Assembly: GCA_031256995.1 (NCBI GenBank)
Contig: JAIRPL010000022.1
Coordinates: forward strand, 1-64,000
Length of the DNA stretch: 64,000 nt
Reading direction: 5' to 3'
From: Puniceicoccales bacterium
GTDB taxonomy: Bacteria > Verrucomicrobiota > Verrucomicrobiia > Opitutales > UBA953
Shown: piece by piece, positions 27,275 through 52,743 of the stretch
Layout of the letters: each line of letters starts with the position of its first letter
Numbering within the stretch: the first letter of the stretch is position 1
Position numbers and translations under genes: made by a program
The notes under the pieces: generated by a model
The model's database searches: none
The model's input: only the letters and a program-made list of their open reading frames with translations
Told to the model about the DNA's origin: nothing

Positions 27275-28321
27275 ATGACGATTGCGTTCACATTCGCTGA
27301 AATCCTCGCGCTTGTCGCACCGGAAAGATCCCTGGGGTGCATGGGGGAGGCGCCCATGGAAATCACCGGGATCGCCGCGTTGGACCAGGCGGGGCCGCGC
27401 GACCTGACATTTCTTGGCAACAGAAAATACACGGCGCAAGTGCCCGGGACAAAGGCTTGCATCGTGCTTTTGCCGCTTGATTACGACGGGGTGCCACGCG
27501 ACGGCCAGGTCTTCCTCTTTGTGAAGGACCCCTCGCATGCCCTGGCCCGCCTGTGCGCGCAAACCGAGGCGCGCTTGTGGCCGAGACCCTCGCCGGGGAT
27601 CCACCCCACGGCCATCATCGCGCCCGGCGCGCGACTTGGCGCCAATCTCCATGTCGGCCCCTATTGCGTCATCGGGGAAAATGCCGTGCTCGGGGATGGC
27701 TGCATCCTGGAGGCCTTCAACCACATTGGACGCGAGGCAAAGCTTGGCGCTGACAACTGGTTGAAACCGCGGGCCACCGTTGGCGAATACTGCGAGACTG
27801 GCGCCCGCGTGAAGCTGCAGGTTGGCGCGCTCGTCGGCGGCGACGGCTTTGGCTGGGAAATGGCGGGCGGGGCTTACAAGAAGATCCCGCAAATCGGCAC
27901 CGTGGTGCTGGAGGATGACGTGGAGGTCGGCGCGAACTCGACCATTGATCGCGCGCGGTTTTCGACGACACGGATCGGGGAGGGCACGAAAATAGACAAC
28001 CTTGTGCAGATCGGCCACAACTGCCTTGTGGGGCGCCATTGCATCCTCGTCTCGCAGTCAGGGCTTGCCGGGAGCACGGTGCTTGAGGACTACGTGGCCC
28101 TCGCCGGGCAGGCGGGTCTTGCCGGCCATCTGCGCATTGGCAAAGGAGCGCAGATTGGCGCGCAATGCGGGGTGATGAGCGACATTCCCGCCGGGGCGGT
28201 TGTTCTCGATTCCCCTGCGTTGCCAGTGAAAACCGCGTTCCGCCTGATGGCCCTGAAACAGCGCCTGCCGGAGCTTTTCAAACGCGTCGGCAACCTCGAG
28301 GCGCATTTGGGTCTCAAATGA
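27275..28321 (+). CDS. lpxD: UDP-3-O-(3-hydroxyacyl)glucosamine N-acyltransferase
   Basis: Left-handed beta-helix hexapeptide repeats; GTVVLEDDVEVGANSTIDRA...IGHNCLVG. Start at ATG 27275, because the longer ORF from 26855 overlaps gtrA. Confidence 0.9.
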   Translation: MTIAFTFAEILALVAPERSLGCMGEAPMEITGIAALDQAGPRDLTFLGNRKYTAQVPGTKACIVLLPLDYDGVPRDGQVFLFVKDPSHALARLCAQTEARLWPRPSPGIHPTAIIAPGARLGANLHVGPYCVIGENAVLGDGCILEAFNHIGREAKLGADNWLKPRATVGEYCETGARVKLQVGALVGGDGFGWEMAGGAYKKIPQIGTVVLEDDVEVGANSTIDRARFSTTRIGEGTKIDNLVQIGHNCLVGRHCILVSQSGLAGSTVLEDYVALAGQAGLAGHLRIGKGAQIGAQCGVMSDIPAGAVVLDSPALPVKTAFRLMALKQRLPELFKRVGNLEAHLGLK

Positions 28322-29106
28322 GGCGCATGGGCGCGGTCTCCGTTTACGGCCAGGAGAGCAACCACGCCGCCTGGCGCCTCGCCGCGATGAACATAGCCAT
28401 CCGAGGCATCGACTTCAATTTTGGCAAACGCCCCGCCAACACCTTCCTCAACGACCAGCACCCCGGCCTCCGCGCCGACTTCGTGATGGCCGTCCCGCCC
28501 TTCGGCATCAGAGAATGGCGGGACGGCCGTCTGAAAGGCGACCCGCGCTGGGTTTATGGCACCCCGCCGAAAGGCAACGCCAACTTCGCTTGGGTGCAGC
28601 ACATGCTTTACCACCTCGCCCCGCACGGCTCCATGGCCCTGCTGCTGGCCAACGGCTCCATGTCGTCCAACACCAAGGTCGAAGGCAAAATCCGCCGCGC
28701 CCTCGTCGAGGCCGATCTCGTCGAGTGCATGCTCGCCCTCCCCGGCCAGCTCTTCACCAACACCCAGAACCCCGCCTGCGTCTGGTTCCTCACGAAAAAC
28801 AAAAAAGGCAGGGACGCCTCGCCGAGCCGTCCGCCCGTCCGCAATCGGACCGGCGAAGTCCTCTTCATCGACGCCCGCCAGCTCGGCTACATGAGAAACC
28901 GCGTGCTGCGCGACTTCACCCCCGCCAACCTCGAAAAGATCGCCGGCACCTTCCGCATATGGAAATACGATTCAAAGCTCACGCGAAGTCGCGGAAAGCG
29001 CGGAGAAGAAAAATTAAGCACGTCTTCCCTCCGCGTCTCCGCGCCTCCGCGTGAAACTTCCACCTATTCCGACATCCCCGGCTTCTGCAAATCCGCCAAA
29101 ACCTGA
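28318..29106 (+). pseudogene. hsdM: type I R-M methyltransferase hsdM, 5'-truncated (C-terminal ~260 aa only)
   Basis: Contains the post-motif-I region YGQESNHAAWRLAAMNIAIRGI and motif IV VPPFG, plus the HsdM C-terminal region. The N-terminal HsdM_N domain and AdoMet motif I are absent. Its ATG overlaps the lpxD stop (ATGA at 28318-28321). Confidence 0.8.
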
Positions 29107-29202
29107 AAGGACTCGACTATGACTTCCAAATAATGCCGTGAGCACGGTCAGCCAGAAGCGCGCCCGGCCCGGGTGCGAGGCCCCGCAAGAGGACAACCAG
29201 CC

Positions 29203-30459
29203 ATGAAAAACGAGTGGAAACAAGTTGCCCTTGGGAATGTCGCGGAAATAAACCCTGCGCGAACCCTCAAAAAAGGAATGATAACCCCATTTATTCCGAT
29301 GAATGCCCTTTCTGCACACACTCGTTCACCGGCGAGGATTGATAAGCGCACGTTTATTGGTCAGGGAGTAAAATTCCAAAATGGCGATACGCTATTGGCA
29401 AGGATTACTCCTTGTTTGGAAAATGGCAAAACTGTCTTCGTTTCGGGCTTGCCGGAGATGTGCGTTGCTCACGGTTCGACTGAATACATCGTGATGAGCG
29501 GGAAAACCGGCATTGCTGACAGTTTGTTTATATATTATTTGTCCCGTTCCAATGACTTTAGGAATCACGCGATAACTCACATGGAGGGCACCTCGGGACG
29601 GCAACGAGTTCCAAATGACGTCGTGGAAAAATACAGTCTCCCCCTCCCGCCCCTCCCTGAACAAAAAACCATCGCGCGAATCCTCGGAACGCTGGACGAC
29701 AAGATCGAGTTGAACCGCCGCATGAACGCGACGCTGGAGGCGATGGCGTGCGCCCTCTTCCAGAGCTGGTTCGTGGATTTCGCCCCCGTCCACGCCAAAG
29801 CCGCCGGCCGCCAGCCCTCCGGCATGGACGCCCCCACAGCACCCCTCTTCCCTGCCTCCTTCCAAGACTCCGAGCTCGGCGAGATGCCAGAAGGCTGGGA
29901 GATCAAAAGTCTCGATCAAGTCGCCCAATATCTCAATGGGCTCGCACTTCAGAAATATCCGCCCAATGATGGCACCACCCTTCCAGTCATCAAGATCGCC
30001 CAACTCCGGAAAGGAGACTCCGTCGACGCGGACCGATGCGACTCAAATATACCTCCGGAATACGTCATTGATGATGGCGATGTGCTCTTCTCGTGGTCTG
30101 GCAGTCTTGAAGTCGAGATTTGGTGTGGCGGACGAGGTGCGCTGAACCAGCATCTCTTCAAGGTAACTTCGCACGATTTCCCGCAATGGTTCTATTACCA
30201 TTGGACGCGGCAGCATCTGGATAATTTCCGCCTTATCGCCGCCTCAAAAGCGACCACGATGGGCCACATCCAGCGCAAGCACCTCACTGAAGCAAAGGTT
30301 CTTGTTCCTCCAATGTCGCTGATTAAAACACTGACACCGAGCATCCAGCCGCTGCTCGATAAAATCGTCGCGAACCGCATCCAATCCCGCACCCTCGCCA
30401 CCCTGCGCAATACGCTGCTACCTCAATTTCTGAGTGGCACTCTGCAAATCAACCATTAA
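29203..30459 (+). CDS. hsdS: type I R-M specificity subunit HsdS (two target-recognition domains)
   Basis: N-terminus EWKQVALGNVAEI; central conserved repeat LPPLPEQKTIARILGTLDDKIELNRRMNATLEAMACALFQSWFVDF; second TRD and C-terminal conserved helix. Confidence 0.88.
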   Translation: MKNEWKQVALGNVAEINPARTLKKGMITPFIPMNALSAHTRSPARIDKRTFIGQGVKFQNGDTLLARITPCLENGKTVFVSGLPEMCVAHGSTEYIVMSGKTGIADSLFIYYLSRSNDFRNHAITHMEGTSGRQRVPNDVVEKYSLPLPPLPEQKTIARILGTLDDKIELNRRMNATLEAMACALFQSWFVDFAPVHAKAAGRQPSGMDAPTAPLFPASFQDSELGEMPEGWEIKSLDQVAQYLNGLALQKYPPNDGTTLPVIKIAQLRKGDSVDADRCDSNIPPEYVIDDGDVLFSWSGSLEVEIWCGGRGALNQHLFKVTSHDFPQWFYYHWTRQHLDNFRLIAASKATTMGHIQRKHLTEAKVLVPPMSLIKTLTPSIQPLLDKIVANRIQSRTLATLRNTLLPQFLSGTLQINH

Positions 30460-30472
30460 ACCGACCAACGCC

Positions 30473-51635: not shown

Positions 51636-52151
51636 ACCGCGCCCTAATGCACCTTCCACATGAGGTGGATGCGACCCGGGCATCCTCGCGCAACCGGAGT
51701 CGAGTGCAAGCAAAACCTGAAAAACAATGAAGCCTCCGCCGCGGCGGAAGCCTGGCTCCTTTCGCACATGGTGAATGAGTTGGAGAGGTTGTCGTCCAAT
51801 TTCGGAAAAAGTGAAGCCCCCAATCGCATGCAGCGTTGGCTCATCAAGTTCGTCCCCTTTCGTACCACATAAAACGGCATCGCCCGCACTAGGACCTTCA
51901 CCTTGCGAGACGTGCGCAGTTCGGAGGCTCGTCGGCAGTGACAGATTATCCAGCTCGCATAAACTGCATGCCTTGCGAGGTGCGCGGTTCGCCGACACCG
52001 AGCTGTTTGAGCGGCCGTTTCCCGGAGAACGGGCCAGGGCACTGGGCATCCGCAACAATTTCACTTCTCCCGTCAAGGTGCCTGAAAGGGCATTTGCCGA
52101 AATCCACCGGCACGGCATGAAACTGTCCGTTTCGTCCTGAACACCTCCCGC

Positions 52152-52580
52152 ATGCCCAGTTTGACCCGCATAACACTTCCAACCGCCGCACGATGGACTC
52201 CCGCGCTCCAATCCCTGCCCGCGCTCGCCATCCGGCAGCCTTACGCGTGGCTGGTGGTCAACGGAATCAAGGACATCGAAAACCGCTCCCGCCGGACCCA
52301 CCACCGGGGAAAAGTGCTGATCCATGCCTCGCTAAATGAGGACCTGCTTTTCGACGACTCCCTGGCCGCGCTGAGCATCCGCGCCGGCATCGAGCTGCCC
52401 GAGTCCTACGACATCGGCGGGATAGTCGGCGTCGCCGAGATCGTCGGCTGCGAACGCCGCCACGAGTCCGACTGGAAAAATCCGTCGAGCTGGGGCTGGG
52501 TCCTGGCCAATGCGCGGCCCTTGCCGTTCCGGCCCTGCAAGGGGGCGCTCGGATTTTTCCGCCCCAAGTTCGCCGATTGA
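52152..52580 (+). CDS. ASCH-domain (PUA-like) protein
   Basis: IRQPYAWLVVNGIKDIENRSRRTHHRGKVLIHAS is the ASCH core motif; 142 aa. Confidence 0.7.
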   Translation: MPSLTRITLPTAARWTPALQSLPALAIRQPYAWLVVNGIKDIENRSRRTHHRGKVLIHASLNEDLLFDDSLAALSIRAGIELPESYDIGGIVGVAEIVGCERRHESDWKNPSSWGWVLANARPLPFRPCKGALGFFRPKFAD

Positions 52581-52689
52581 AATACCGCTCCAGACATCGC
52601 CTCCATCAAGGATCCCGCGCGAGTGTTTGCCCCCCCCGGGCCGAGGCCGAACGCGGCCGTGCCCACATGCGCCAGCTGGCGGCGGAGCA

Positions 52690-52743
52690 CTGGCGGAGGA
52701 GGAGGGATTCGAACCCCCGGCAGGCGCAAGCTCGCGTCTGATT
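52690..52743 (-). other. tRNA-Ser-like 3' fragment (anticodon-stem 3' strand, variable arm, T-arm, acceptor 3' strand, CCA) with no 5' half; probable att-site remnant
   Basis: Minus-strand TCAGACGCGAGCTTGCGCCTGCCGGGGGTTCGAATCCCTCCTCCTCCGCCA is ~80% identical to the 3' half of the tRNA-Ser(CGA) at 54737-54824. No matching 5' acceptor strand or D-arm lies upstream. Confidence 0.6.

Follow-up and report, generated by a model that had tools for sequence, protein, structure and literature searches.

A chromosomal defence island beside lpxD in a Puniceicoccales genome, probably built of two adjacent composite loci

Defence genes embedded in other multi-gene defence operons are known from several precedents, namely TgvAB inside a type I restriction-modification (R-M) locus, defence genes inside hmaABC and PsyrTA inside BREX. 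For the Type-2 BREX-related systems and Hma an R-M-like logic has been proposed, and defence genes insert between their core genes (Rakesh and Krishnan, 2026; Liu et al., 2024). The Helicase+DUF2290 system of a P4 satellite hotspot, a Klebsiella/E. coli homologue, blocks phage T7 (Rousset et al., 2022; PMC9122126). Here, a window of 64,000 nucleotides (64 kb) from a Puniceicoccales bacterium (contig JAIRPL010000022.1) was analyzed, in which an interval rich in defence genes follows lpxD. This interval is probably a chromosomal defence island built of two adjacent composite loci, located at 28.3-38.1 kb (locus 1) and 38.7-52.6 kb (locus 2). The rating applies to the whole explanation, both loci and their history taken together. 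The island is typical in kind, heavily reworked, and a fresh example of a known phenomenon, the embedding of defence genes in defence operons.

The window sequence belongs to a metagenome-assembled genome (MAG). Candidate island genes of at least 140 amino acids (aa) were included in the Pfam scans, and NCBIfam and PADLOC profiles were used in addition. The complete operon of the Vibrio plasmid pAM7 served as type I reference, and its HsdM, HsdS and HsdR were run by tblastn against the 64-kb window. The features of locus 1 are as follows, with coordinates in nucleotides (nt) and GC standing for the guanine-plus-cytosine content.

28318-29106, forward strand: hsdM pseudogene fragment, approximately residues 273-501 of the 567-aa reference (Pfam N6_Mtase; PADLOC MTase_I, E=6e-75; tblastn).
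29203-30459, forward strand: hsdS, intact, with two target-recognition domains (Pfam Methylase_S, twice; PADLOC Specificity_I, residues 13-427 on profile positions 2-398 of 403); it opens a low-GC block.
30473-32623, forward strand: superfamily 1 (SF1) UvrD-like helicase of Helicase+DUF2290 (PADLOC PDLC03002, 1046 bits, residues 14-721 on profile positions 1-705 of 707; Pfam UvrD_C_2 and UvrD-helicase).
32620-33285, forward strand: DUF2290 partner (Pfam DUF2290, E=7e-50; PADLOC PDLC02999, E=6e-96, 318 bits).
33330-33806, forward strand: open reading frame (ORF) of 158 aa and uncertain status between DUF2290 and PsyrT, overlapping the PsyrT start; it was called as a gene in a contig of the Logan assembly and gave no match in Pfam, NCBIfam or PADLOC.
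33764-35842, forward strand: PsyrT, RecQ/DEAD-type helicase (PADLOC PsyrT, E=5e-271, profile positions 8-688 of 689; Pfam DEAD and Helicase_C).
35839-37182, forward strand: PsyrA, DprA/SLOG-like protein with a C-terminal winged helix-turn-helix (wHTH) (PADLOC PsyrA, E=2e-128, profile positions 3-396 of 398; Pfam DNA_processg_A).
37207-38058, forward strand: hsdR pseudogene, N-terminal ~287 codons in three frames (tblastn with pAM7 HsdR; Pfam HSDR_N).

The three hsd genes are present in the canonical order and hsdS alone is intact, as a preliminary description of this DNA had stated. In the hsdM fragment, the Pfam N6_Mtase match begins at nt 28321 with profile position 73 of 311 (E=8e-61), and residues 273-501 of pAM7 HsdM (567 aa) align to 28336-29097 with 60% identity. 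The remaining parts of HsdM were not found by tblastn anywhere in the 64-kb window. Since only residues 273-501 were found, motif I (reference residues ~238-248) and the last ~66 residues are absent; at the N-terminus ~272 residues are missing. The reported loss of the N-terminal half including motif I was thus confirmed, and a motif I elsewhere in frame, which was looked for over the 64 kb, was not found. The catalytic motif IV is mutated and reads A-V-P-P-F and not A-N-P-P-F.

The hsdR pseudogene consists of three pieces at 37248-37622 (reference residues 15-144), 37589-37696 (residues 131-166) and 37699-38058 (residues 168-287 of 1075). They lie in three frames and therefore two frameshifts are present. 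HsdR beyond residue 287, the motor domain included, was not found in the window by tblastn, which agrees with the N-terminal fragment (residues 15-287 only) with two frameshifts and without motor domain described before. Of the components of a functional type I R-M system, an HsdS with two target-recognition domains is present; an HsdM with motif I and NPPF/Y and an HsdR with superfamily 2 (SF2) motor and nuclease in a single frame are both missing. Judged from these remains, the type I R-M operon is predicted to be dead, with an hsdS gene that is intact yet orphaned.

Two defence systems are embedded between hsdS and hsdR, in line with the earlier claim. Both genes of the Helicase+DUF2290 pair are present, the DUF2290 start overlapping the helicase stop by 4 nt. 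This low-GC pair had been described as a NERD-helicase pair; the pair exists, but its identity is that of the Helicase+DUF2290 system, which also occurs as a self-contained pair on plasmids, once adjoining a type I R-M locus. The adjacent genes psyrT and psyrA likewise overlap by 4 nt, and both PsyrTA models are matched end to end. From their complete coding regions, Helicase+DUF2290 and PsyrTA are likely the parts of locus 1 that work today.

The GC content was found to be 53% for hsdS, 49% for the helicase and 47% for DUF2290, compared to 63% for the core genes on the flanks; it changes stepwise at ~29.1 kb and again at 33.3 kb. The claimed GC mosaic therefore holds for the low block (47-53%), whereas the other parts of the island range between 57 and 68% and are not uniformly at 65-68%. 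The low-GC hsdS-helicase-DUF2290 block probably entered as a single foreign piece by recombination replacing the hsdM 3' end; this end is lost at ~29.1 kb, right where the GC content changes.

Embedding in type I loci is documented, and the order of the hsd genes with foreign genes between hsdS and hsdR would fit a single accretion hotspot, in which the type I operon acted as a landing pad and at least six unrelated modules were dropped into it or after it. The truncation of hsdR exactly at the start of the next block (38058) points in the same direction. The three core genes of this next block, locus 2, are the following.

38715-42104, forward strand: PLD(HKD)-Swi2/Snf2 helicase-nuclease, allele A, 1129 aa (Pfam PLDc_2, SNF2-rel_dom and Helicase_C; PADLOC C3a139 HKD+Snf2, E=5e-113).
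46477-51138, forward strand: Eco57I/PglX-like gamma N6-adenine methylase (MTase) fused to DUF3800 (MTase::DUF3800, PDC-M04A), 1553 aa (Pfam Eco57I, MmeI_Mtase and DUF3800).
51135-51635, forward strand: PDC-M04B, 166 aa (PADLOC PDC-M04B, E=9e-38; 80% identical to the gene at the same position in the related locus L096).

Motif I (VLDPACGSGAF) and motif IV (NPPYGG) of the methylase are intact, and its true start is at 46477, as in Geminisphaera colitermitum. Its C-terminus matches PADLOC PDC-M04A (E=1e-56, profile positions 5-226 of 232), with the DE motif found in the translation. The M04B ATG overlaps the methylase stop (ATGA), i.e., M04A is directly followed by M04B as PADLOC specifies for PDC-M04. 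The complete methylase is 100% identical to a protein (P0241) annotated from a Puniceicoccales MAG. The MTase::DUF3800 fusion was found in more than 100 protein clusters of ~1550 aa with 52-79% identity, spanning Verrucomicrobiota, Nitrospirota, Sumerlaeota and other phyla. Since more than 100 clusters share it, the fusion is not a read-through accident.

The order Snf2 - MTase::DUF3800 - M04B was identified in all four other loci inspected (L096, L098, L099 and contig xZTEsh4S). In L098 and L099 the triad genes are tightly packed, with start and stop codons that overlap or are separated by no more than 15 nt; contig xZTEsh4S has a gap of 390 nt between Snf2 and the methylase. In L096, the Snf2|MTase junction carries a small-protein/PIN toxin-antitoxin-like pair, and the partial contig L097 shows the same arrangement. 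The methylase comes directly after Snf2 in a metagenomic relative, and homologues of the methylase and the PLD-helicase are encoded as a pair on haloarchaeal plasmids (E=3e-39 and 2e-58). No type I genes were found near the operon in the stretches inspected of G. colitermitum, L090, L096, L098, L099 and a fifth contig.

Locus 2 is, as far as gene order and domain content indicate, a putative conserved R-M-type three-gene operon and not a string of unrelated modules. The single hotspot is distinctly unlikely in view of these results: right of 38.7 kb, the organisation follows a different conserved operon that occurs elsewhere without type I genes, Snf2, MTase::DUF3800 and M04B are one system rather than three modules, and the cargo of locus 2 lies between Snf2 and the methylase and not between hsd genes. 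The mosaic defence island of the preliminary description was supported as such, whereas two of its parts did not stand. Of the six or more unrelated modules that it listed, several belong together in this one operon, and only 28.3-38.1 kb of the supposed single 24-kb island are built on the type I scaffold, an independent, recurrent operon beginning at 38.7 kb.

In the proposed mechanism, the methylase, which has a specificity region of its own, would label self DNA, and DNA lacking the label would be attacked by the PLD-Snf2 translocase-nuclease. These roles are modelled on those in R-M, BREX-related and DISARM systems. For DUF3800, an RNase H-like fold is predicted; type VII retrons use the domain as their effector, and it is also found alongside some Cas12a2 proteins. 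The methylase shows PglX/IIG similarity in its C-terminal part (PADLOC models), and no nuclease domain was recognised in its N-terminal ~470 residues. Searching the PDB with the methylase sequence gave no match, and an AlphaFold2 single-sequence model of M04B was unusable (mean pLDDT, the predicted local distance difference test score, of 45).

PADLOC recognises the pieces of the triad separately (HKD+Snf2, type IIG-like methylase, PDC-M04), and no published description of the triad as a unit was found. The triad is a testable candidate defence system. It could even be a widespread R-M-type defence system undescribed as a unit, with an RNase H-like nuclease module coupled to the methylase, a dedicated cargo landing pad at the Snf2|MTase junction and, in the window, a rare direct scar of two-allele cargo stacking, although we regard this wider interpretation as tentative and somewhat doubtful.

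The cargo and the stubs between Snf2 and the methylase comprise five features.

42214-43671, forward strand: PDC-S27 ATPase (AAA and DUF234), cargo of allele A (PADLOC PDC-S27, E=1e-225, profile positions 3-482 of 484; Pfam AAA_22 and DUF234).
43653-43960, forward strand: stub of a second methylase allele, consisting of a 134-nt upstream region and the first ~58 codons, ATG at 43785 (tblastn with the G. colitermitum methylase).
43960-44372, forward strand: 3' stub of Snf2 allele B, ~137 codons, fused in frame to the methylase stub to give a chimeric ORF at 43785-44372.
44399-45886, forward strand: DUF4062-HATPase_c_4-wHTH protein, cargo of allele B (Pfam DUF4062 and HATPase_c_4; start assigned by codon and alignment).
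45929-46366, forward strand: Fic-like_C relic, a C-terminal tail that became separated from the ancestral DUF4062 protein (Pfam Fic-like_C).

The resulting order is Snf2-A, PDC-S27 and methylase-A stub, followed by Snf2-B stub, DUF4062 gene, Fic-like_C relic and methylase-B::DUF3800. The nested repeats noticed earlier are indeed present, and stubs of a second operon allele account for them. The segment 41668-42068 is repeated at 43936-44336 (403 nt, 95.8% identity) and 43653-43871 at 46348-46563 (219 nt, 96.3% identity). The latter repeat covers the methylase upstream region and the first 29 codons, after which copy 1 continues with ~30 diverged in-frame codons to ~43960; a stretch of ~107 nt is identical between the two methylase starts. 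An 18-nt tandem repeat CATCCCATCCGCCTCAAC with ~2.3 copies is located directly upstream of both methylase start codons (43739-43779 and 46436-46471), and four instances of a 27-nt element beginning with GACCTCACCGCCGGCCTCTG surround these two copies.

In its last 36 nt, Snf2-B agrees with the G. colitermitum allele and not with allele A, as does the 26-nt spacer in front of the DUF4062 gene. The Snf2-B stub and the DUF4062 gene behind it are collinear with the G. colitermitum locus. In residues 1-405, the DUF4062 gene product shares 62% identity with its G. colitermitum counterpart; it then ends with a new wHTH tail and stop. The old Fic-like_C tail is found in the same frame 130 nt downstream, where residues 404-517 of the G. 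colitermitum protein align to 46016-46354 (tblastn). Two diverged operon alleles, one with PDC-S27 and the other with the DUF4062 gene, were probably joined, with the sequence from the methylase A start to the Snf2 B end lost and both cargo genes kept. The accumulation of cargo and the nested repeats would both be due to this joining of two alleles with loss of the middle. Read in this way, the locus carries a legible recombination scar of cargo build-up between alleles that share conserved end genes.

The same arrangement could be an assembly artefact, in which two strain variants (Snf2-PDC-S27-MTase and Snf2-DUF4062-MTase) were linearised and the tandem exists in no cell. The sequence is derived from a MAG, the Logan contigs of run SRR14710896 end at the repeat borders (41999-43747 and 44267-46440), and the ~107-nt identity between the methylase starts would favor such a misjoin. 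However, the repeat copies differ by ~4% and are thus not collapsed duplicates, and the join is not repeat-to-repeat, since ~90 nt of unique sequence (43872-43960), an in-frame diverged methylase N-terminus, precede Snf2-B. The match at the join is only 13 nt long, too short for a k-mer misjoin. An artefact is regarded as very unlikely. On sequence grounds, two findings speak for a real tandem order, namely the 4% divergence between the copies and, at the join, 90 nt of unique sequence that looks coding.

For the history of locus 2, the features at its right end and the right flank are informative.

51907-52140, forward strand: GNAT-family 3' relic, full length 677 aa in G. colitermitum (residues 607-677 with 64% identity by tblastn; blastn 89% from 51984).
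52152-52580, forward strand: ASCH (PUA-like) protein, the conserved right-end gene (Pfam ASCH).
52691-52745, reverse strand: tRNA-Ser-like 3' half from the anticodon loop to CCA, a possible attachment-site scar.
54737-54824, reverse strand: resident tRNA-Ser(CGA) in the right flank (ARAGORN and Rfam).

In G. colitermitum the gene order is Snf2 - DUF4062/HATPase_c_4/Fic-like_C - Eco57I-like methylase - AAA_21 ATPase - GNAT - ASCH, and no hsd remnant was found in the 3.7 kb examined upstream of Snf2. On the G. colitermitum contig ABEA03000173, an insertion sequence comes after ASCH. The Snf2 and ASCH proteins are 90.5% and 91% identical between the two genomes, whereas the methylases share only 37% identity. 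Conserved ends with a divergent methylase are the pattern expected if the end genes anchor a swapping of the interior, specificity included. The identity of ~90% for Snf2 and ASCH, compared to at most 73% for lpxD in any relative, argues for horizontal transfer of locus 2.

ASCH/PUA domains have been described as readers of modified bases. A PUA-like gene is located downstream of the Snf2-methylase operon in five loci, as EVE in L096 (15308-15700), L097 (6877-7320) and L098 (14347-14772) and as ASCH in the window (52152-52580) and in G. colitermitum (L089, 16443-16874). This recurrence of EVE/ASCH hints at a functional link.

In contig xZTEsh4S, genes for an integrase, an excisionase-like helix-turn-helix (HTH) protein and a primase are located upstream of the triad, and in L090 a tRNA-Gly, a relaxase and HTH_17 are found upstream of Snf2. 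Locus 2 was acquired horizontally, in the proposed history, and probably on a tRNA-targeting integrative element, the integrase end of which has since been lost. A tRNA-targeting mobile element is a reasonable vehicle for the triad.

The tRNA relic has the same T arm as the resident tRNA-Ser(CGA). Its variable arm differs, and no pairing is possible between its acceptor strand (CTCCTCC) and the 5' strand of the resident tRNA (GGAGAGA); because of both mismatches, the relic stems from another tRNA gene. Its best Rfam match is the antisense of a plastid trnS region, and it was not found in the related loci searched. The relic and tRNA-Ser(CGA) lie 2 kb apart, with prmB (TIGR03533, E=2.5e-91) and a glycosyltransferase-like gene in between. 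Interpretation of these 2 kb as a "prmB mini-island" was rejected, given the unpairable acceptor strands, the different variable arms and the assignment of prmB to a housekeeping equivalog.

The tRNA-Ser-like 3' half at the right edge, the integrase or tRNA adjoining related triads and a left edge that resembles a deletion endpoint could also indicate that the whole 24 kb arrived as one integrative element at a tRNA-Ser, the integrase end being lost in a deletion that clipped hsdM. This single import is unlikely. G. colitermitum shares only the part from Snf2 to ASCH and not the type I part, the patterns of GC content and identity point to three or more separate pieces, neither an integrase nor a second repeat is present, and the relic with its incompatible acceptor strand is not from the neighbouring tRNA-Ser(CGA).

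The left edge of the island is formed by lpxD.

27278-28321, forward strand: lpxD, intact, left flank and outside the island (NCBIfam PRK00892, residues 6-342 on profile positions 6-340 of 345, E=4e-105; Pfam LpxD and Hexapep).

The lpxD stop codon TGA (28319-28321) overlaps the ATG (28318-28320) that opens the ORF in the hsdM frame, by which the sharp left boundary of the preliminary description was confirmed. The junction is included in the segment 22620-39596, which was reproduced without any mismatch by the Logan assembly of run SRR14710896. The window is chromosomal, with NuoG-like, SPFH, RecA, NrdD, TolC-like and HlyD-like genes left of the island and prmB, tRNA-Ser(CGA), nth and ispG right of it.

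The best lpxD relative in the protein search showed 73% identity, followed by Puniceicoccales MAGs with 68%. Opitutales relatives in the scan of genome contigs reached at most 56% in lpxD and shared no neighbours. The MAGs with 68% identity have the order bamA-skp-lpxD-prs, and on the contig with 73% skp-lpxD is followed by the contig end. There is no synteny between the window and these relatives on either side. Since the bamA-skp(-prs) context of the relatives is missing on both sides, the lpxD neighbourhood is rearranged. A tRNA-Cys(GCA) gene and a divergent gene for a GtrA-like membrane protein (26402-27108) precede lpxD where the relatives have bamA-skp; a repeat of the tRNA-Cys 3' end was not found.

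LpxD of the 73% relative ends five residues later with a similar motif. As the junction is located a few bases from the lpxD stop and the relative has this similar end, lpxD is essentially untouched. The flush junction is tentatively read as a deletion or an illegitimate join, the extent of which would have been limited by selection on the essential lpxD. The proposed alignment against relatives turned up no empty site after lpxD, as no relative in the genome-contig scan and the protein search was close enough, and a scan of viral contigs with the hsdM fragment gave only relatives with at most 67% identity.

Several points have to be set against the proposed structure and history of the island. 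The tandem order across 41.7-46.6 kb is given by the MAG assembly alone; the Logan contigs of SRR14710896 break exactly at the repeats and leave the order and the 43872-43960 junction without independent confirmation. The five triad loci inspected are not a census. From domain content only, the methylase is assigned a putative part in self/non-self distinction and PLD-Snf2 a putative nuclease activity. At lpxD, an insertion and a deletion fit equally well at the present distance of the relatives. No integrase was detected in the Pfam scans and no second copy of the relic in the window at up to 3 mismatches, i.e., both the tyrosine integrase beside a tRNA and the paired direct repeats of a tRNA-targeting integrative island are missing. 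Furthermore, the orientation of the relic places the island on the tRNA-proximal side, the usual side of the integrase, yet none is found there.

Besides the island, further segments of the window differ from their surroundings. Low GC content was also found at 1-4000 (51%) and 58000-64000 (55%), which suggests further foreign blocks. The first contains two large ORFs at 685-3160 without Pfam match, and the second encodes radical-SAM and DegT-type sugar-modification enzymes. Two identical 36-nt copies (62435-62470 and 62505-62540) are located 70 nt apart in an intergenic region near the window end. A 1649-aa ORF at 21151-26100 with 73-76% GC has a HlyD-like C-terminus, and its N-terminal part is packed with short GC-rich tandem repeats (21.3-22.1 kb). 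The ORFs at 38161-39291 and 43708-45666 and the antisense ORFs were rejected as high-GC artefacts according to the GC content at the codon positions.

Compared to known systems, the Helicase+DUF2290 pair of the window has the same two families as the described one (Rousset et al., 2022), adjacent and overlapping and with near full-length matches to the hidden Markov models, and is ~50% identical to plasmid and enterobacterial versions. The predicted PsyrTA (RqlHI) of the window, a toxin-antitoxin-type defence pair, likewise consists of a RecQ/DEAD helicase and a DprA-like protein. PsyrTA lies within a BREX operon in Halomonas and within the type I locus in the window. With type I operons carrying embedded defence genes (prrC; TgvAB in Vibrio cholerae VPI-2; the "embedded" candidates of Payne et al./PADLOC), locus 1 shares the order hsdM-hsdS-[foreign]-hsdR, and its embedded genes are self-contained systems as in those cases. 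Unlike the known embeddings, the host R-M system appears dead, two systems are found in series and the guests outlived the scaffold. The only unusual point of locus 1 is this combination of a dead host operon with intact guests. Embedded systems can thus outlive their host operon, and annotation that demands complete host systems would miss loci such as locus 1.

For locus 2, the same pairing of an HKD/PLD-Swi2/Snf2 effector with an N6-methylase is found in the Type-2 BREX-related (DUF499-centred) systems and Hma (Rakesh and Krishnan, 2026; Liu et al., 2024). The HKD-Swi2/Snf2 effector of the former is present, with PLDc_2, SNF2-rel_dom and Helicase_C in one protein. Assignment of locus 2 to these systems was nevertheless rejected, as neither DUF499 nor a stand-alone DUF3780 was detected in the Pfam scans and PDC-S27 is the sole ATPase. 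The methylases differ as well: that of the window is Eco57I/PglX-like with DUF3800 and an M04B partner, whereas the Type-2 BREX-related methylase is of the DUF1156 type. DISARM class 1 was rejected too, since DrmA and DrmB are missing and only partial DrmD (at most 131 bits) and weak DrmMI (35 bits) matches were obtained.

Plasmid operons of PLD-Snf2, DUF4391, Mod-like methylase and Res-like helicase encode a PLD-Snf2 protein ~40% identical over 95% of the length, likewise as the first gene. Its partners differ wholly, being DUF4391, a type III-like methylase and a second helicase. With the PADLOC candidate PDC-M04 and the DUF3800 effectors of type VII retrons and Cas12a2-associated proteins, locus 2 shares the DUF3800 domain, and the M04B gene comes next as in PDC-M04. 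In the window, M04A is not free-standing and forms the C-terminal domain of the 1553-aa methylase. No current idea is overturned by these comparisons; the known nesting within multi-gene defence operons, described for type I R-M, BREX and Hma, is extended by the island.

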